From IMG/VR virus record IMGVR_UViG_2923334124_000002: 56,113 nt of DNA, one strand, 5' to 3'. The notes under the pieces are model-generated. The model saw nothing but the letters and a program-made list of their open reading frames with translations. It searched no databases and was not told where the DNA came from. The DNA comes from a virus (Duplodnaviria; Heunggongvirae; Uroviricota; Caudoviricetes). Below are positions 566 through 10,137 of this stretch, one piece after another. The translations under genes were made by a program, and so were the position numbers. Position 1 is the first letter of the stretch, and each line of letters starts with the position of its first letter.

Positions 566-598
566 AAAACCCCGGATGATCACCGGGGTTAATTTTAT
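566..598. terminator. GC-rich hairpin (aaaaccccgg...ccggggtt) followed by a T-run; likely terminator for rha, possibly bidirectional
   Basis: inverted repeat read directly from the sequence. Confidence 0.4.
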
Positions 599-684
599 CG
601 AGCGTGATTGCCGCTAATCGCCATCGCTCTGATTGAGCGTAAATCATTCAGGTTATTCAGTTCTTCCTTCTGCTCTCGCTGACG

Positions 685-831
685 TCAATAAATCCCATCA
701 TTGCGATCAACCTCATCCTTAACCATTGATGCGAGCAGTTCTTCCAGTTTCTGCGCTGACAGCTTTACCTGGTGATCTTCAGCATCTTCCCGGGCTATTG
801 TGGTTCGCGCAGTGGCTGATTTTGCTGACAT
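685..831 (-). CDS. hypothetical small protein (about 48 aa, MSAKSATARTTIARED...)
   Basis: short ORF inside track ORF 685..966; no recognisable SD; no family recognised. Confidence 0.2.
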   Translation of the reverse strand: MSAKSATARTTIAREDAEDHQVKLSAQKLEELLASMVKDEVDRNDGIY

Positions 832-919
832 CACCACAGGGGGCAGACGGACCATTGAACCATGGCCTCCGGAACAAATAAGGGCAAAAATAACAACCAC
901 TATCGAAAGCTCACAAACT

Positions 920-1058
920 AACCGCAGCACGTTCCTGCATACGACGTGTCTGCGGCATAATCCCAATGATTACTCCCTGACAGGATTTGCAGGCCACTCA
1001 ATATCAGGTGCAGTTGATGTATCAACACGATTCAACAATACCCGATATTTATTCCATG
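920..1058. repeat. direct repeat copy 1 (3' end of a tfa-like gene plus following stem-loop)
   Basis: about 90% identical to 1970..2103 by manual alignment. Confidence 0.8.
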
Positions 1059-1239
1059 CCTCCAGCAACGATCTTTCTTCCTCCGTTGCGATTTCCAGAT
1101 CTACAGCATCCTGCAGTGGCGCAATATACTCACTGAATTCCTGGATGTAGAACTGTGTGGTGACGGTCTTCCAGCCATTCGGCTCCTGCTGTATCGAAGC
1201 ATACCAGGCTATTTCAATATCGCTATGCTGCGGCAGCAT
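970..1239 (-). CDS. tail fiber assembly protein-like, C-terminal domain only (probable remnant)
   Basis: 89 aa; C-terminus ...[27 protein letters not shown] resembles the C-termini of the two full-length Tfa proteins in this window. Confidence 0.5.
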
Positions 1240-1295
1240 TTAACCCCTTGTAATTCATCGCCATAATTGATTTAATTCACAAATAAAACTATAAC

Positions 1296-1964
1296 ATGGT
1301 GAAATCAATGAAAAAAAACACAGATGATGGGGCTAAAATTTACACACCACTTACCCTAAAGCTTTATGACTGGTGGGTTTTGGGAGTATCAAATCGGCTT
1401 GCATGGGGATGTCCTACAAAGGAACACCTTCTTCCACACTTTCTGGAACATGTAGGTAACAACCATCTGGATATTGGTGTTGGAACTGGGTTTTACCTTA
1501 CTCACGTACCTGAGAGTAGTCTGATATCTTTAATGGATTTGAACGAAGCTAGCCTGAACGCGGCATCTACAAGGGCTGGGGAATCAAAAATTAAACATAA
1601 AATTAGCCATGATGTTTTTGAACCTTATCCCGCGGCGTTACATGGTCAATTTGATTCCATTTCCATGTTTTACCTTCTTCACTGCCTGCCTGGAAATATA
1701 TCTACAAAAAGCTGTGTAATACGCAATGCGGCGCAGGCCTTAACTGACGATGGAACTCTATACGGAGCCACAATTCTTGGCGATGGAGTTGTGCACAATA
1801 GCTTCGGTCAAAAACTGATGCGCATTTACAATCAGAAAGGCATCTTTTCAAACACAAAAGATTCCGAAGAAGGCTTAACACATATACTCTCAGAGCATTT
1901 CGAGAATGTTAAAACCAAGGTTCAAGGTACTGTAGTAATGTTTTCCGCTTCAGGGAAAAAATAG
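1296..1964 (+). CDS. class I SAM-dependent methyltransferase (cargo/moron gene; substrate unknown)
   Basis: 222 aa; glycine-rich motif I LDIGVGTG; AT-rich relative to flanks; second ATG at 1308 has a GGTGA SD-like sequence. Confidence 0.7.
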   Translation: MVKSMKKNTDDGAKIYTPLTLKLYDWWVLGVSNRLAWGCPTKEHLLPHFLEHVGNNHLDIGVGTGFYLTHVPESSLISLMDLNEASLNAASTRAGESKIKHKISHDVFEPYPAALHGQFDSISMFYLLHCLPGNISTKSCVIRNAAQALTDDGTLYGATILGDGVVHNSFGQKLMRIYNQKGIFSNTKDSEEGLTHILSEHFENVKTKVQGTVVMFSASGKK

Positions 1965-1969
1965 CATCC

Positions 1970-2103
1970 AACCGCAGCACGTTCTTGCTTAAGACGTGCT
2001 GCGGCATAATCCCAATGATTACTCCCTGACAGGGTTCGTAGGCCACTCAATATCAGGTGCAGTTGATGTATCAACACGGTTCAGTAACACCCGATACTTT
2101 TTC
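1970..2103. repeat. direct repeat copy 2 (tfa 3' remnant with an 11-bp-stem hairpin ccgcagcacgt/acgtgctgcgg)
   Basis: manual alignment with 920..1058; minus-strand translation gives ...[27 protein letters not shown] preceded by a stop. Confidence 0.8.
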
Positions 2104-2162
2104 TAGGCTTCCACCACCAGCACGACAAGATGCCGCATACAGTGAACCAGTCAGTCCAGTTT

Positions 2163-2369
2163 TCAGACAACCAGTGCGTCACCTTTTTGAAGGCGCTTTA
2201 AAGCACGTTTTAATCCAGGTCGGCCTGTCCTTGTTCCGCTTAATTTATCTTCAAATATTTGTTCATATCCTGCACAAACAAGAGCGTTTCGTTGCAGATC
2301 TGTATTCTGGTCATTTGTTGATACCCTTACATAGCCAATCAGCACGCTGAATCTCCCGTCCAAAAGCAC
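2163..2369 (-). pseudogene. pin: DNA invertase (Pin/Gin/Hin serine recombinase), N-terminal fragment of about 65 aa
   Basis: LIGYVRVSTNDQNTDLQRNAL...GTRTGRPGLKRALKRLQKGDALVV matches the invertase N-terminus including the catalytic-serine region; reading frame stops after ...LVV where intact invertases continue. Confidence 0.8.
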
Positions 2370-2398
2370 AAATCATGCCATGCAGGCCAGAAACCGCC

Positions 2399-2426
2399 AT
2401 TATCTAAAACCTCGGTTTACAGGAAA
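2399..2426. other. gix/pix-like inversion crossover site (ttatctaaaacctcggtttacaggaaac)
   Basis: matches the remembered gix consensus TTATCCAAAACCTCGGTTTACAGGAA; inverted copy at 5478..5505. Confidence 0.6.
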
Positions 2427-3439
2427 CGGTAAACAAGGCTGGTAACGCCGTTCAGCGTTCCGGCGATAAAATGACCGGAGAACTGAAAATTGGCACGGTG
2501 AATGCGCTGCGAATTTTCAATGATGCCTTCGGTCTTATTTTCCGTCGTTCAGAAGATTTTCTTCATTTCATTCCGACGGCTGAAGGACAAGGCGAAAACG
2601 GTGATATCGGCCCATTAAGGCCATTCGCTATAAATCTGAGAACAGGTGCTATATCTGTCAGCCACGGGGCCAAAATTGATGGTGGGCTGGCGCTTGGTAC
2701 AGATAACGCACTGGGCGGTAATTCCATTACTCTCGGAGATAACGACACTGGTATTAAACAGGGCGGCGACGGTGTCCTTTTATTCTATTCAAATGGACAA
2801 CTGGCATTTGGGCTTCAACCCGCATCTGCTGATTTTTATAAGCGGGTTGCATATATTCATCAGGGAATAATTCCTGATGGAAGTGGCGCATTTGCAGACC
2901 AGTTGAATAATGCCACCGCGCCTTTTGTTCAGACGCAGTTTGCCTGGAATCCCACTCCTGGTGGTCTTTACGTGCCGATAGTTAAGGGCTTGTCCATTCG
3001 CAATGGACAGGGCTATCCCGGCGCGGTCAGCTTTGGGTATTTACTGACAGAACAGTATGGATTTCCGGTTCCATGTATTCATATGCGTGGCGATGGCGGT
3101 AATGATGCTTTATGGCAGTTTAACCCGAACGATAAATCCTTTATTTCACCGGGTGCTCTTATTGCGGGTGGCGTCCGTTATAACACCGATGGAAATATAT
3201 TTGGTGGGTGCTGGGGGTCAAACTTAAATGATTACCTGAATAGTTCTTTTATCAGAAATGTGCGTCTGGGAGGCAGACGTTCTGACACATTATATCGCGG
3301 AGGACTTTGCGAACCAGGTAATGGTCATGTGACAACAGGATTGCAAATTATTGGTGAGGTTGATGGAGATGACTGGATGGTGTCACGACCACTACAAAAA
3401 TACATTTCTGGTAACTGGTATAACGTTGAACAGGCATAG
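2427..3439 (+). CDS. silent alternative tail-fiber C-terminal cassette (Sv'-like, promoterless in this orientation)
   Basis: shares the ALGGNSIxLGDNDTGxKQxGDG block with the C-terminal part of Stf; starts at the crossover site; followed by its own tfa. Confidence 0.6.
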
Positions 3440-3454
3440 CCATCAGGAGAATAT

Positions 3455-3982
3455 ATGCAACATCTGAAAAATATTACCGCCGGAAACCCCAAAACCATTG
3501 AGCAGTATCAGCTTACGAAAAAAGCTGGCGTTATCTGGCTATATACAGAAGACGGTAAAAACTGGTATGACGAATTAAAAAACTTTCAGGATGATACTTT
3601 AAAAATAGCTTATGACCAGAAGGGGATTATTCGTTGTATTGAGAAAGACGTATCAACACTTAACCCTGACGGGTTAAGTGTTGTTGAGTTACCGAATATA
3701 ACAGCCAACCGTCGCGCCGATATCTCGGGAAACTGGAAGTTTCTGGATGGTAAAGTAGTAAAGCGGGAATATACAAAACAGGAACTGCAACAGCAGGCAG
3801 AGTTACAAAAAGCCGCTTTGCTTTCCGAAGCGGAGTCTGTGATTCAACCGCTGGAACGTGCTGTCAGACTGAATATGGCAACTGATGAGGAACGCACACG
3901 ACTGGAATCATGGGAACGCTACAGCGTTATGGTCAGCCGTGTGGATACTGCAAAGCCTGAATGGCCACAGAAACCAGAATAA
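3455..3982 (+). CDS. tfa: tail fiber assembly protein (alternative copy, U'-like)
   Basis: 175 aa; [14 protein letters not shown]... N-terminus and ...[10 protein letters not shown]-terminus typical of Tfa. Confidence 0.8.
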
Positions 3983-4012
3983 CAACAAATTAAGGCCCGT
4001 ACGGGCCTTTTC

Positions 4013-4546
4013 TTATTCTGGTGGTTCCGGGAATGTTACAGGAAGAACCGAGGTATCAGTTGTCTCAACCTGTTGCACGTATCGCATCCAGTTCATCAGT
4101 TGCTGTCTGTCTGAATCAGTGATAATCCCCAAAGTAAGCTGTGTTTGCCAGAACTGCGTTTTTTCTCTGGCCTGCTGTAATAATATTTTTTTCTGGTTTT
4201 CCGTCTGTAGGCGCAACTCTTCTTCGGTATATACACGTTTAATGACTGCGCCATCTTTAAACATCCATTTACCTGAGTCGTCAGCACGCCGGTTGGCGGT
4301 AATATCAGGAATCTCAACGACGCTATAACCTTCAGGGTTAAGTGTGGAGGCATCTTTGGTTATGGCAACAATAATATTATTTTCATCGTAAACAATCTTT
4401 ATGGTGTCTGGCTGAAAGTTTTTCACTTCCTCATACCAGTTTTTTCCGTCCTCAGAGTAAAGCCAGATAACTCCGTGTTTCTTTGTTAACTCATACTGTT
4501 CCAGTGTTTTAGCATTACCCGCTTTTATGTTCTTTAAGTGCATCAT
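4013..4546 (-). CDS. tfa: tail fiber assembly protein (expressed copy)
   Basis: 177 aa; paralogous to 3455..3982; immediately downstream of stf. Confidence 0.85.
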
Positions 4547-4547
4547 A

Positions 4548-7373
4548 TTAAACGCTCGCTACATTATACCAGGTGCCATTTATATACTTTTGAACGGGTC
4601 TGTAATAAACGCCCGCTATATTATCGGCAGAGTTAGACCCTGTATCCTGAACATTAATACCAGACAATACATGACCTGAAGGGCACTGGAAATTCCATGT
4701 TTGCCAGTTGTTCACTCCATAATATTGCTGTGAACCAAGTCGAACATCTTTCACATAACGGGAATCAAAGTTACCGTAATCCGAGGGGTTAACACGCCCT
4801 GTAATATTTATGGTTTTATTACTTTGAATGCTTCCGGAGACAAAGCGCATAACATGGACGTTATTAGCATAAACATCCAGATTACCATCGCCATTTTGTT
4901 TAAAGCCCGTGTCATTATCACCCAATACAATCGAATTACCGCCAAGAGCACTGGATGTTCCGATACCCAGTGCACCATTCAGTTGACCACCAGATAACGG
5001 CAGTGCACCAACATCTCCTGCTGAAGGCTTTCTGGTGGTGGTGTAAAATTCGGACCAGTCGGCTTCAAAACCATAACCATCACGGGCTGAACGATAAAAA
5101 ATACCGCCATTTTTATAATTAATCCGAAACTGAGCTGCAGGACAACTTCCTTCTCCCATATAAAAATGAATAATTAACGTTGATGCACCACTAATAGTTG
5201 CGTTATAGGCTCCGCTACTCCAGTTCCATCCAACTGCTTTATCATTCGCAACGGTGCTTCCTGTTTTCCCTAAGGCAAACGCACCAACATGACTTGCTTT
5301 TAATGTGATATCGGAGGAACCATCAAAAGCCACATTGCTTATTTTCCTGGCAGTTTTTAATTTTGCAGCTGTAGAAGCATTGCCGGATAGTTCACCAGAA
5401 AGGCCACCGCTGAATGTTTGTCGATTAGTCCAGGTATTCGCTGTACTGAGTAACGGTATTTTCTCCCCGCTTGTGCCGAGTTCTCGTAAACCGAGGTATT
5501 CGATAACGGCGGCAACGGTCGATTTCGCAAGAATATCCCGCCCAACTTTTGTCAGGGTTGCCAGACTGGCAACATCATTCCCCGTAAAATACGGAAACCT
5601 GTCTGCCGCAGTAGCAAGCCCGGCCAGCGCCGTCAGGGTGGCATCTTTCGGTTGCTTACCCGCAAGCGCGCTAGTCATGGTGGTCGCAAAATTCGGGTCG
5701 TTGCCCAACGCCGCAGCCAGCTCGTTCAGCGTATTCAGTGCGTCAGGCGACGAGTCCACGAGGGCAGCGATCGCAGCCATAACATAAGCCGTGCTTGCGA
5801 TTTGGGTATTATTCGTTCCCTGTCGCGCAGTTGGTGTTGTTGGCGTTCCGGTCAGTGCAGGACTATTTAAGGGCGCTTTCTTGTTCGTTTCACCCATTAC
5901 CGCCTTAACCGCTTTTGGCGTTGCCGCCAGTGACTCGGAAGTGCTGTTGGTCGCACTGCTGAGCTGTACTATCCCCTTTTTCGTCGTGCTCGCATCCTCA
6001 AGCGCCACGGCGGATGCAATATCCTCTGCCCGTTTTGCCGCTGTCTCGGCGCGCGTTGCCGCGGATTCCGCCGTACTTTTGCTCTGAGCTGCCGCCGTCG
6101 CACTGCCAGCTGCCTCTGTCGCCTTCGTGGATGCCGTCGTGGCGCTGCCCTTTGCTGCTGACGCCTGTCTGGTCGCCTCATCTTTTGAAGCAGACGCAGA
6201 TGATGCCGATGACGCCGCTGAACTGGCTGACGATGCGGCTGCCGCCTTAGAGGAAGCAGCATTGTCTGCTGAAGTCTTTGCATTTGTTTCAGAGGTTTTT
6301 GCTGCAGAAGCAGACCTCGCTGCTGCAGTGGCTTGCTCAGTGGCTTTGCCAGCCTTCGTTGTGGCTGTTGAAGCGGATGATGCGGCGCTTTCTGCCGATT
6401 TTCCGGCGGCGGTGGCACTGGCTGAGGCCTGCCCGGCACTTGTTGACGCGGCACTGGCAGATAATGCAGCCGCTGTTTTTGAACCTGCCGCAGCTGAGGC
6501 GCTCTGTCCCGCTGCTGTTTCAGAAGACTTAGCGTTCGTCTCGGACGTTTTTGCCGCCTTCGCGGAATTTCCTGCCGCCGTTGCCGAGGAAGCTGCACTA
6601 CTGGCACTTGATGATGCATTCGTTTCTGAAGATTTCGCTGCCTCTTTTGAGGCCGCCGCACCCCGTGCCGAGGTGGCAGCTTCTGACGCCTTCGTGGTCG
6701 CTGTGGATGCAGAAGTGGCTGCCGATTTTTGTGATGCTGCGGCATTCGTTTCTGACGTTTTCGCGGCACTGGCGCTGGTAGCTGCCGCGCTTTTTGATGA
6801 CTCTGCAGCAGCAGCACTTTTTGCTGCTTCACGGGCCTTTGTCGATGCCGTTCCTGCGCTGGAAGACGCTGACTGAGCCGACGACGCGGCCTGTCCGGCT
6901 GACGTGCTGGCGGCACGTGATGAGGCTGCAGCATCGGTTGCATGAGTTGCCGCCTCGCTGGCTGATGCACTGGCATCGCTGGCTGATTTTTTCGCGGCTG
7001 CCGTATTCTGTGCAACCGCGGAGGCGTTACGTGACACCTCTTCTACCATCTGCTCAAAGCGGCGCAGTGCCTCCGGTCGTACATCATCCTCCGTCATGGC
7101 ACCGAGAAAATCATTCAGCGTACCTGGTCTGGAACCTTCATAGACGGTAATGGTCCCGGCATGTGAAGGCGGAAAACCTTCAACCAGCAGGGTGACGCTG
7201 TACTGACCATGCTCAACATCCATGCTGTAACGTCCGGCTTCATCCGGATTTTCAGAGGCCACCGTGTTCACCACCACCGTGCTGCTGGTTCGTCTGGCCT
7301 TCAGCACAATGGTGCAGTTCTGTACTGGTTTTCCTGTGCCATCTTTAAGCACGCCAGAAATTTTTACTGTCAT
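4548..7373 (-). CDS. stf: side tail fiber protein (lambda Stf-like) with long Ala/Ser/Thr-rich low-complexity region
   Basis: 941 aa; N-terminus [22 protein letters not shown]... closely matches remembered lambda Stf; C-terminal about 310 aa lie inside the invertible segment. Confidence 0.85.
5478..5505. other. gix/pix-like inversion crossover site inside stf (inverted relative to 2399..2426)
   Basis: reverse complement ttatcgaatacctcggtttacgagaac matches site at 2399..2426 with about 4 mismatches. Confidence 0.6.
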
Positions 7374-7834: not shown

Positions 7835-8584
7835 TCACTGATCTCCTTCGGTCAACGGAGATTGTATTTTCCGCATTGATTCTCCTTTAAGTTCGATCTT
7901 GATACTGCCATGAACCAGTCGATCTAGGATGGCATCCGCATGTGTGGAGTCTCCGATCATTTTGTACCAGTTTTCCACCGGCAACTGGCTCACTACGATG
8001 ATTGAGCCTCGTTGGTACATCAGATCCACTATTTCCAGCAGGTCGCTACGCTGTTCTGATGAGAGAGGTTCCAGCCCCCAGTCATCCAGAAGCAGCAGAT
8101 CGCTATTATTCAGCCTGGTCAAAAGTTTGCTGTATCTTCCATCAGCATGCCCCTGATAGCACTGTTCCATCAGCGCTTTAAGGCGATAATAGTAGACCTT
8201 GTATCCCTGTCGGCAGGCATTATGACCAAGTGCACATGCCAGGAACGTTTTACCGCTGCCGGTGGCCCCGGTCAGTAAAATATTTTGTTTCAGGGTTAAC
8301 CAGTTTCCCTGACTGAGTGAACGGATGAGGGCCCTGTCCAGCCCTCTATTGTTACGATAATCCAGCTTTGATAACTCAGCATTAAGTCTGAACCGTGCAT
8401 GTTTGATCAGACGCTCTGCCTTCCTGTTTTCACGGCAGGTTAGTTCTTCTGCTGTCAGTAATGACAGGCGTTCTTCGAAGCCCAGCTCCTGGTATGTGCC
8501 CGGTTGAGCAAGTTGCTTTTTAAGCGCATCACGGAAGCCGGTGAGTTTAAGTGCGGTCAGTTGTTCGTAAAGATGATTCATCAT
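7835..8584 (-). CDS. istB: IS21-family helper ATPase IstB
   Basis: 249 aa; Walker A GATGSGKT; DnaC-like. Confidence 0.9.
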   Translation of the reverse strand: MMNHLYEQLTALKLTGFRDALKKQLAQPGTYQELGFEERLSLLTAEELTCRENRKAERLIKHARFRLNAELSKLDYRNNRGLDRALIRSLSQGNWLTLKQNILLTGATGSGKTFLACALGHNACRQGYKVYYYRLKALMEQCYQGHADGRYSKLLTRLNNSDLLLLDDWGLEPLSSEQRSDLLEIVDLMYQRGSIIVVSQLPVENWYKMIGDSTHADAILDRLVHGSIKIELKGESMRKIQSPLTEGDQ

Positions 8585-8595
8585 TGGATCCCGTA

Positions 8596-10137
8596 TCAGT
8601 GGTAATACTCACTGCCGCGTACGTTTTCGTGTTCCATCGTGGATAACAGATCTGGTTTTGGATCCTGAACAGGTTGTTTATCCAGACCTTTTTCCAGGAT
8701 CGATTTAATACCTGACAGACGCCATACCTTTGTTTTCAGAGCTCTTGCACATGCTGCATTAAGTCTGGCTTTACTGTATTTTTTATGAAGGTTCAGGAGT
8801 CCAAGGCAGAAGCGATAGCTTTGTTCCGGATGTGGACGAGAGTTCAGTATATGAAGCACATAACTATGAGTTTCACTGCCTATGTGCCCCGCCCATTCCA
8901 GAAGACGCTCTGGCGTCCAGGTGGCATGCTGTCGATGAGCTTCAGGCATGTGCTCGTTGCGGGTACTGTAGCCATAAGTACGCTTGCGCGGGTGCACAGC
9001 AACCTCCTGCCCCTGATTGAAGAGTCTTACCAGTTCTCCGGAGATCCATGCTTCCAGTTGCTGGCCTAACAGCGAACATGGAACCGAGTAGTAATGTTTG
9101 TCGATTTCCACGTGGTAATCGGCATGAACTCTGACTTTCTTCACCAGGGTGTAACTGTAACTGGCTTCAGGAAGAGGCTTCAGTGCGGGTTTATCAAGCT
9201 GGATGAAGAGTTCTGCACGTGAATAACCCAACTTCTGCATTATTTTGTTATTCAGTCTTTCCAGCAACTCCCGAATGCGCTGATTAAGCGATGCAAGGCT
9301 GTAGAAGATCTCATGCCTGATTCGGGCCATGATCCAGCGTTCAACAACCTGAACGCCAACTTCAGCTTTGGCTTTATCTTTCGGTTTACGTGGCCGCGCA
9401 GGCAAAACTGCGACATTATAATGCTCAAGCATCTGCTGGTAGGTAGGGTTAACGTCAGGATCATACTTACATGCCCTGGATGTGGCGCTTTTCAGATTGT
9501 CCGGAACAACAAGTTCAGGAACGCCACCCAACCACTGGAAGCAGCGAACATGACTCATCACCCAGTCTTCAAGCTGCTGAGACCAGGTGGCCTCTGCCCA
9601 TGTGTAACTTGATGCCCCGAGAACAGCTACGATGACCTGAGCAGTTCTTATTTCTCCGGTCTCAGGGTCGGTAACGCCAACGGTAGGTCCACAGTAATCA
9701 ACGAAAAGTTTTTCGCCAGCTTTATGTACCTGACGCATTGATGGTGAAGTGGTTTTGAGCCATTCACGGTACATCCGGCAGTAATGGTTATAGCTGTAAA
9801 AACCGCCTGGATTACGCTCACAGTATTCTTCCCAGAGTAGCTGCAGCGTCACGCATTTATTACGCAGTTCCCGGTGTACTGTAGCCCAGTCAGGCAGAGA
9901 GTGCTTCTTCATCTTAACCTGGGTCTGAAGGAACGCATGTTTTAGTTTTGTATCATCCCATCCTGTAGGTAAGGGCCACTGCTTTATGCCAAGTTGAGCC
10001 GCCCGATTAGCATATCTGGATACAACGGAAGGGGAGATTGCAAGACTACGACCAATTTGTCGATGGCTGAGTCCAACACCGTATTTAAGCCTAAGAATTT
10101 CTTTAAGTTTTCTCATAGAAATTGGAACTGTTGGCAT
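8596..10137 (-). CDS. istA: IS21-family transposase IstA
   Basis: 513 aa; N-terminal HTH and DDE-type core characteristic of IstA. Confidence 0.9.
   Translation of the reverse strand: MPTVPISMRKLKEILRLKYGVGLSHRQIGRSLAISPSVVSRYANRAAQLGIKQWPLPTGWDDTKLKHAFLQTQVKMKKHSLPDWATVHRELRNKCVTLQLLWEEYCERNPGGFYSYNHYCRMYREWLKTTSPSMRQVHKAGEKLFVDYCGPTVGVTDPETGEIRTAQVIVAVLGASSYTWAEATWSQQLEDWVMSHVRCFQWLGGVPELVVPDNLKSATSRACKYDPDVNPTYQQMLEHYNVAVLPARPRKPKDKAKAEVGVQVVERWIMARIRHEIFYSLASLNQRIRELLERLNNKIMQKLGYSRAELFIQLDKPALKPLPEASYSYTLVKKVRVHADYHVEIDKHYYSVPCSLLGQQLEAWISGELVRLFNQGQEVAVHPRKRTYGYSTRNEHMPEAHRQHATWTPERLLEWAGHIGSETHSYVLHILNSRPHPEQSYRFCLGLLNLHKKYSKARLNAACARALKTKVWRLSGIKSILEKGLDKQPVQDPKPDLLSTMEHENVRGSEYYH

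Follow-up and report, generated by a model that had tools for sequence, protein, structure and literature searches.

A putative methyltransferase gene, ybcY, in a DLP12-type tfa module of a lambda-like Escherichia coli prophage, and the pin-tfa fusion beside it

We analyzed a 56,113-nucleotide stretch of DNA (hereafter the window; IMG/VR virus record IMGVR_UViG_2923334124_000002, Caudoviricetes). Near its start lies ybcY, a gene for a putative class I S-adenosylmethionine (SAM)-dependent methyltransferase, between the 3' ends of two tail fibre assembly (tfa) genes and next to the remnant of a pin-type invertase gene. A preliminary description of the same DNA had seen here a methyltransferase cassette that was bracketed by direct repeats and had replaced most of the invertase gene. 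The features of the locus are the following.

920-969, minus strand: hairpin tail beyond the stop codon of the tfaX-type gene, distal part of repeat copy 1 (stem and fold)
970-1239, minus strand: tfaX-type truncated tail fibre assembly open reading frame (ORF), 89 amino acids, tfa-derived only over 970-1146
1240-1307, no strand assigned: AT-rich divergent spacer with the ybcY promoter (28% G+C)
1308-1964, plus strand: ybcY, putative class I SAM-dependent methyltransferase of 218 amino acids (Pfam, phrog_2132, phage annotation)
1970-2018, no strand assigned: hairpin between the convergent ybcY and tfa remnant, distal part of repeat copy 2 (RNA fold)
2019-2116, minus strand: 3' remnant (last ~32 codons) of a tfaD-type tfa gene, in which TGG has become TAG at 2105-2103
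2112-2120, minus strand: in-frame illegitimate pin-tfa junction, pin codon ~77 joined to tfa codon ~163
2121-2345, minus strand: pin pseudogene with the ~75 N-terminal codons of an invertase gene of the Gin/Pin serine type (Pfam and alignment)
2394-5512, no strand assigned: invertible tail-fibre segment of 3119 bp, measured to the outer ends of its 32-bp inverted repeats (2394-2425 and 5481-5512)

Over positions 560-2500 the window is 100% identical to JJ1886 and to many other chromosomes of sequence type 131 (ST131). The order in JJ1886 is trpA, ompW remnant, ash, rha, DUF4376 pseudogene, tfa remnant, methyltransferase gene and second tfa remnant, followed by a recombinase remnant, an alternative tail-fibre 3' part, two tfa genes, stf, lom (interrupted by ISEc12) and J. 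This order therefore puts the locus at the tail-fibre end of a lambda-like prophage in ompW.

A repeat search of the window returned two pairs of direct repeats, 920-948/1970-1998 at 90% identity and 950-1067/1999-2116 at 89%. Because the two families are offset by one base they represent a single repeat of about 147 bp, with copies at 920-1067 and 1970-2116 that are 89-90% identical and differ by one 1-bp indel; BLAST found no third copy in the window. The direct repeats of the preliminary description (~135 bp, ~90%) are thus confirmed and prove slightly longer. Both copies contain the final ~98 nt of a minus-strand Caudo_TAP (tfa) frame together with the 50-nt hairpin tail. The left ORF (970-1239) matches Pfam PF02413 Caudo_TAP (E=6e-25; residues 31-86 against profile positions 75-130 of 131) and, over its full length, phrog_2341 (E=4e-61). 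It is annotated as an incomplete tfa by the Prokaryotic Genome Annotation Pipeline (PGAP), and over window 920-1146 the sequence agrees at 90% with the 3' ends of K-12 tfaD and of the full-length PhiR26_1 tfa. The right remnant (2019-2116) shares 95 of 98 positions with nt 488-585, the last 98 nt, of the 585-nt PhiR26_1 tfa, and PGAP annotates it as an incomplete tfa without its N-terminus. In PhiR26_1 the right-hand tfa is complete (194 amino acids) and directly follows stf, and the repeat there extends to 227 bp (the equivalent of window 920-1146). From these alignments the bracketing repeats are best described as the ends of two tandem tfa genes, one of them (once) functional and the other a fragment. 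The Caudo_TAP match on the left, the PhiR26_1 tfa match on the right and the hairpin in both copies also bear out the earlier assignment of the repeats to tfa 3' ends with a stem-loop. An origin of the repeats as target duplications was considered and rejected, as they are gene fragments of 147-227 bp. The Rfam model IS009 (RF02111, an E. coli small RNA candidate) scored 112.5 bits on the tfaX fragment at 1013-1216 on the minus strand, its gathering score being 117, and 43.5 bits on the right tfa remnant at 2062-2141 on the same strand. We rejected the IS009 and CssrB matches as distinct RNAs; the models appear to reflect the tfa and hairpin sequence itself.

The hairpin stem in each repeat copy is G+C-rich and 11-12 bp long. 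In copy 1 the stem is CCGCAGCACGT/ACGTG(T)CTGCGG and the minus-strand RNA folds at -28.1 kcal/mol (z -2.6; the copy-1 z-scores are -2.6/-2.2). A consensus scan placed a terminator-like site at 939-923 on the minus strand, and the copy-1 hairpin was the only one that it reported. The copy-2 hairpin folds at -32.4 kcal/mol (z -4.2) on the minus strand and at -27.4 kcal/mol (z -4.5) on the plus strand, and across loci its stem is kept and its loop varies. On the minus strand a T run begins 9 nt past the stem; the plus strand has no T run. The hairpin at 1970-2018 is probably a two-way transcription stop between ybcY and the tfa remnant. RefSeq carries a 45-amino-acid ORF at 1909-2046 on the minus strand, over the ybcY 3' end and the hairpin, that looks spurious; in ST131 it goes by the name 'hypothetical protein' (WP_001309429.1), whereas the K-12 annotation reads 'nucleocapsid protein'.

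The ybcY frame (1296-1964, plus strand) is open from ATG 1296, which gives 222 amino acids, and a start at ATG 1308 gives 218. The latter is more likely to be the true start because all homologues and the PHROG profile begin there: the protein matches phrog_2132, whose function is listed as unknown, with E=4.2e-157, residues 5-222 falling on profile positions 1-218. The PhiR26_1 and PhiR68_2 records name the product 'putative uncharacterized protein YbcY'. In K-12, DLP12 has the order tfaD remnant, frameshifted ybcY, tfaX remnant, appY and ompT, and its ybcY DNA is 98.8-98.9% identical to the window copy. Among complete E. coli genomes, 3797 of 5426 (~70%) carry ybcY DNA (window 1240-1970) at 95% identity or more, and the ORF is intact in the great majority of the carriers. 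The protein is also found at 98-100% identity in 14 lambda-like phage records, where ybcY has its place in the b region, with the tail-fibre genes on one side and int on the other, next to ompT. Phages ev243, 2G7b and PhiR26_1 have the order stf-(tfa)-ybcY-tfaX and then a hydrolase gene and ompT, and the block at window 993/1015-2116 is 97-99.5% identical to these three phages and K-12. Of the complete E. coli genomes, 3073 contain the junction formed by the ybcY 3' end, the hairpin and the tfa 3' end, and at least 2628 contain that formed by tfaX, the spacer and the ybcY 5' end. ybcY is flanked by two tfa 3' ends, one of tfaD type, with which it converges, and one of tfaX type. Compared across these genomes the supposed cassette is the ybcY of a DLP12-type tfaD-ybcY-tfaX module, the norm and not a peculiarity of this locus. 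Within 900-2120 we found none of the features of a mobile cassette that were looked for (recombinase, transposase, terminal inverted repeats, attC). The idea of a special cassette at this locus is therefore not supported, the same layout being present in K-12 DLP12 and ~3000 genomes. The repeats come close to being ordinary tandem tfa genes, although there is indeed a cargo gene between the two.

To the right of the module, the minus-strand ORF at 2163-2369 corresponds to the N-terminal third of a serine invertase; it matches the 145-position Pfam Resolvase N-terminal domain model over positions 2-69 with E=4.6e-15. From GTG 2345 the pin frame runs for 60 codons before its first stop, with in-frame stops at 2165-2163 (W61) and 2153-2151 (R65), and homology is recognisable to about codon 77 of ~195. 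The remnant reads VLIGYVRVSTNDQ... from this GTG, that is, the N-terminal catalytic domain with the active-site serine (YVRVST), but it lacks a complete catalytic domain, the E-helix and the C-terminal helix-turn-helix (HTH) domain. Positions 2345-2155 align with an intact invertase (locus L017), and the DNA over 2155-2440 is 92-95% identical to Mu gin, D108 gin and the P88 invertase. The truncation of pin given in the preliminary description is therefore real, and the truncated invertase without its HTH domain has been published as EC958_1582 (PMC4134206).

A three-way register alignment places the switch of identity from pin to tfaD inside CTGGTGGTGGAAGCC, where a few bases are shared. In four other genomes the fusion reads ...MRHLVVLVVEA(W)KKYRVLL..., and of the 5426 complete E. 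coli genomes 535 have the pin-tfa junction. In MS10495 and PSS-13 the fusion has the codon-65 stop only; ST131 and NCTC86 carry two further nonsense changes. We regard the fusion, on this alignment, as a decaying pseudogene. The junction also occurs at the prfC site (MS10495) and at the bio/ybhB site (PSS-13) without an intact ybcY. In PSS-13, at this lambda attachment site, a sensor diguanylate cyclase gene (locus L015, 3181-5007) takes the place of ybcY, between a hairpin copy and the fused tfa and pin remnants, and in Kati and PhiR68_2 ybcY stands beside ynaE and an intact pin, in the other orientation. The pin truncation is thus a separate joint, formed by illegitimate recombination between an invertible Mu/e14-type fibre module and tfa, and not the footprint of a ybcY insertion. 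The claim that the cassette had replaced most of pin does not survive these comparisons, as the joint is present where ybcY is not intact (PSS-13, MS10495) and ybcY is bracketed where there is no pin.

The pin remnant adjoins the invertible tail-fibre segment, which accounts for its presence. In ST131 strain ZH193 this prophage carries 2394-5512 in the inverted state, and the breakpoints fall within the crossover sites. By junction-specific queries, 153 complete genomes have the segment oriented as in the window and 376 have it reversed; the sum is close to the 535 genomes with the dead pin. Strains 4/0, 4/1-1 and 4/4 differ in the orientation of the segment; by name they may be one isolate series. 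For the prophage Phi4 of EC958 a tail-fibre segment of ~3.1 kb (3106 bp) with 26-bp crossover sites was described and its inversion by another enzyme in trans was proposed (PMC4134206), and such trans action of a Pin-type enzyme has been shown for PinQ on e14 (PMC12529663). The crossover sites of the window match those of EC958 Phi4 with the half-sites swapped, its orientation being opposite to that of the EC958 reference. BLAST found no other invertase in the 56-kb window. Inversion in trans is consistent with these data because pin is dead, both orientations are seen and the window holds no other invertase; the segment still flips, and would do so through another invertase encoded in the genome. 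Intact invertase genes are present in other ST131 prophages, such as Phi1 of EC958.

The composition of ybcY sets it apart from its surroundings, as had been noted: G+C is 41% in the gene and 28% in the spacer upstream of it against 52% in the window. The spacer contains the promoter hexamers TTGATT (1267-1272) and TATAAC (1290-1295), 17 nt apart. Genomic SELEX (systematic evolution of ligands by exponential enrichment) in K-12 identified a constitutive RpoD (sigma-70) promoter for ybcY in the ybcY/tfaX spacer, TTGATT-17-TATAAC, with an H-NS mark (PMC3946193), and the hexamers of the window are identical to those listed there. ATG 1296 directly abuts the -10 hexamer of this promoter, and translation is therefore more likely to begin at ATG 1308. 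A consensus scan gave a second, weaker candidate promoter at 1240-1267; if this upstream site were used instead, a nearly leaderless ybcY mRNA would be avoided. The ybcY transcript may thus begin at 1274 or at about 1302. ybcY is transcribed opposite to the late and tail genes, with the strong hairpin in between. It would be expressed from the prophage in the lysogen, independently of late transcription and not for virion production, and we infer that this expression is subject to silencing by H-NS.

YbcY is, according to sequence profiles and its predicted structure, a putative class I SAM-dependent methyltransferase, which agrees with the preliminary description. Its ORF matches the Pfam families Methyltransf_12, 23, 25 and 11, all above their gathering scores (Methyltransf_12, 37.5 bits with a cut-off of 30). 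The motif I sequence LDIGVGTG, at residues 54-61 of the 218-residue protein, is invariant among 43 homologues from E. coli to Aeromonas. Over these homologues 58 columns are invariant, and the invariant motifs include YDWWVL, AWxC, HLDxGxGTG, FYLLHCLPG and YNxKGIFSN. The invariant residues Cys35, His53, His125 and Cys126 might form a metal site. The AlphaFold2 model has a mean confidence score (pLDDT) of 91.3 and displays a seven-strand Rossmann-like core with two N-terminal helices. The family comprises 1123 clusters (50% identity) at E<=1e-10, lichen-fungus proteins included. Its longer members have the methyltransferase domain only, apart from one fungal protein with unrelated RCC1 repeats. 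Searches of Protein Data Bank (PDB) sequences with YbcY reached at best E ~1e-5, and NCBIfam has no equivalog for it. Placement by HMMER and Foldseek, which had been proposed as a check, gave a generic small-molecule methyltransferase fold and no characterised subfamily that fits. A match to the PADLOC model mad2 (12.9 bits) was rejected and no other defence-system match was obtained. A recurring alpha/beta hydrolase neighbour was also considered and discarded, since a BLASTP comparison (E=0.87) showed no homology between the phage enzyme and that of Erwinia. Our literature searches found no functional study of ybcY or WP_000240999. On balance YbcY is probably a cytoplasmic small-molecule methyltransferase, possibly acting on a lipid head group, that works in the lysogen; as a soluble enzyme of 218 amino acids it would methylate a small molecule (a metabolite, a xenobiotic or a lipid head group) and not DNA.

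With a probability of about 80%, then, the region is the right-arm, b-region end of the lambda-like prophage Phi4, integrated in ompW next to trpA, ybcY is an inherited moron and the pin-tfa fusion arose separately. ybcY would be a self-contained cargo gene (moron) between a tfaD-type 3' end on its right and a truncated tfaX-type copy on its left. This layout, which K-12 DLP12, several inducible lambda-like phages and most E. coli genomes share, would have been inherited. A Mu/e14-type invertible tail-fibre module, invertase included, would have taken the place of the original stf-tfa and been joined in frame, pin codon ~77 to tfa codon ~163, at a microhomology; nonsense changes would then have led to the decay of the fusion.

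Several observations weigh against this reading or weaken parts of it. The sequence of events (replacement of a module or an internal deletion) is read off structures that exist today, and we found no ancestor with an intact pin upstream of tfa-ybcY. In MS10495 ybcY is almost wholly lost through an internal deletion that joins window position 1269 to 1929.

4700-4816/4813-5338 of the MS10495 locus (L014), no strand assigned: ybcY deletion, equivalent to window 1270-1928, with the tfaX, tfa-remnant and pin-remnant context kept

This deletion and the K-12 frameshift therefore indicate that ybcY is dispensable. The E. coli copies of ybcY are at most 5 substitutions apart, so that the ratio of nonsynonymous to synonymous substitution (dN/dS) is uninformative. 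Homologues at 56-68% identity (Enterobacter, Salmonella, Yersinia, Erwinia, Aeromonas) are chromosomal singletons with unrelated neighbours, and context therefore gives no functional clue. Finally, with the -10 hexamer at 1290-1295 the transcript would be nearly leaderless before ATG 1308, which makes the choice of promoter and start uncertain.

Other explanations of the locus differ in what they make of its boundaries and of the gene itself. A discrete methyltransferase cassette could have recombined into the locus through tfa 3' ends, displacing the greater part of pin. The gene is truly bracketed by direct repeats of tfa 3' ends, and other cargo is found at the same boundary: PSS-13 has a diguanylate cyclase gene there, Kati and PhiR68_2 have ynaE-pin. 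The conserved tfa end thus acts as a border at which cargo is exchanged. However, the same bracketing exists without any pin in K-12 DLP12, ev243 and PhiR26_1, and in ~3000 genomes, and pin is joined to tfa at a microhomology 150 bp away from ybcY, not at the repeat boundary. Since the junction also occurs without an intact ybcY, the part about a replaced pin is largely refuted, and the explanation as a whole is unlikely. Recombination between tfa 3' ends is nevertheless a plausible origin of the duplication, although it is not demonstrated: no empty site, with tfa joined directly to the left-flank hydrolase gene without ybcY, was found, every phage with that flank carrying ybcY. That ybcY is functionless prophage debris alongside the tfa remnants would fit its pseudogene neighbours (tfaX, tfa remnant, pin remnant, DUF4376), its frameshift in K-12 and deletion in MS10495, and the H-NS mark at its promoter region (PMC3946193). 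We consider this distinctly unlikely: the ORF is intact in most of the 3797 genomes, the 14 phage records have the protein at 98-100% identity, the chromosomal orthologue-like genes (56-68%) retain the 58 invariant residues, those of the SAM motifs included, and the AlphaFold2 model is confident.

What YbcY methylates divides the remaining alternatives. A nucleic-acid methyltransferase, either an anti-restriction phage DNA methylase or an rRNA/tRNA methylase, is highly improbable. The 222-residue sequence lacks the DNA-methyltransferase motif IV ([DNS]PP[YFW] or PCQ), no DNA-methylase family in Pfam, NCBIfam or PADLOC was matched, and the 218 residues leave out any target-recognition or RNA-binding domain. 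The two-helix N-terminal lid of the model is typical of small-molecule enzymes, the chromosomal homologues are singletons without a restriction partner, and ybcY opposes the phage late genes. Another alternative is a membrane-surface phospholipid or phosphoethanolamine N-methyltransferase (PmtA/PMT-like) that alters the envelope of the lysogen. The best Foldseek match is a bacterial phosphatidylethanolamine (PE) N-methyltransferase (8ys9, 207 amino acids, E=3e-12, template modelling (TM) score 0.63-0.67), Plasmodium and plant phosphoethanolamine methyltransferases are among the best TM-scores, and the N-terminal helix is rich in aromatic residues (YDWWVL). There is also a weak NCBIfam match to Legionella PmtA, but YbcY reaches 15.7 bits on this model (NF045882) and its cut-off is 390; the structural likeness is generic. 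His125 aligns by hhalign with the catalytic His132 of PfPMT, in a weak alignment: a check of the Tyr/His dyad by profile alignment had a probability of 44% and aligned only the common histidine. The PmtA-like function is thus a lead only, and very unlikely as an account of YbcY. It is also quite unlikely that YbcY is a lysogenic-conversion enzyme for a specific substrate (for example an envelope head group of the host such as PE or phosphoethanolamine, or a toxic or signalling small molecule) that is switched on when H-NS silencing is relieved; as the K-12 copy is frameshifted, such an activity would have been missed despite the intact copies in ~70% of E. coli strains and in many Enterobacterales.

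Some neighbouring features lie outside the module. To the left of tfaX are a DUF4376 pseudogene (~595-873, minus strand) and a rha antirepressor-type gene (1-558), and the ash gene of JJ1886 lies upstream of the window start, before the ompW remnant; the left flank may be what is left of a second element. The IS21-family element ISEc12 (istA/istB), at about 7835-10137 of the window, interrupts lom in the prophage.

The structure of the locus is already known, as the module is named and widely annotated, and the dead invertase of this prophage, along with inversion in trans, was published in 2014. YbcY emerges as a very common accessory enzyme of E. coli (~70% of complete genomes) that belongs to a family spread across Enterobacterales and beyond, and for which K-12 is a natural mutant. 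The tfa 3' end with its hairpin is a recurrent boundary for cargo swaps in lambdoid phages (ybcY, diguanylate cyclase, ynaE-pin, appY-ompT) and an example of mosaic joints at a conserved linker.

The closest known system is K-12 DLP12, tfaD-ybcY-tfaX-appY-ompT, which has the same gene in the same orientation, with the same tfa 3' ends, hairpins and promoter hexamers, and to which window 993-2116 aligns at 97%. In contrast to the window its ybcY is frameshifted and its tfaD is cut at the 5' end by the DLP12 deletion beside the terminase genes. The right tfa of the window consists of 32 codons fused to the pin remnant, and the left flank has the DUF4376 pseudogene, rha and ash instead of appY and ompT. 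EC958 Phi4 (Forde et al. 2014, PMC4134206) is the same prophage, with the truncated invertase EC958_1582, the invertible segment and the crossover sites, but ybcY, the tfa repeats and the nature of the pin truncation are not discussed in that paper. As in the Mu Gin, e14 Pin and P1 Cin systems, a constant 5' part of stf is served by two alternative 3' parts, each with a tfa, the crossover sites are inverted and the invertase gene reads away from the segment. Unlike in those systems, the invertase gene of the window is a pseudogene of ~75 codons fused to a tfa tail, and the segment therefore depends on an invertase encoded elsewhere. Like the lambda morons lom and bor, ybcY is one gene of unusual base composition that has a promoter of its own, is bordered by a hairpin, lies between phage modules and is presumably expressed from the prophage; lom and bor, however, have known surface functions, whereas the product of ybcY is a cytoplasmic-type enzyme. 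With PmtA (8ys9), JHAMT (7ec0), PfPMT (3uj7), DhpI (3ou2) and BelI (9fce) YbcY shares the Rossmann-like core, the N-terminal lid, the GxGxG motif and its size, but it is only 11-21% identical to them and falls into none of their subfamilies. The YbcY motifs YDWWVL, AWxC, FYLLHCLPG and YNxKGIFSN gave no significant match to these five enzymes, the sole profile alignment, to PfPMT, being weak.

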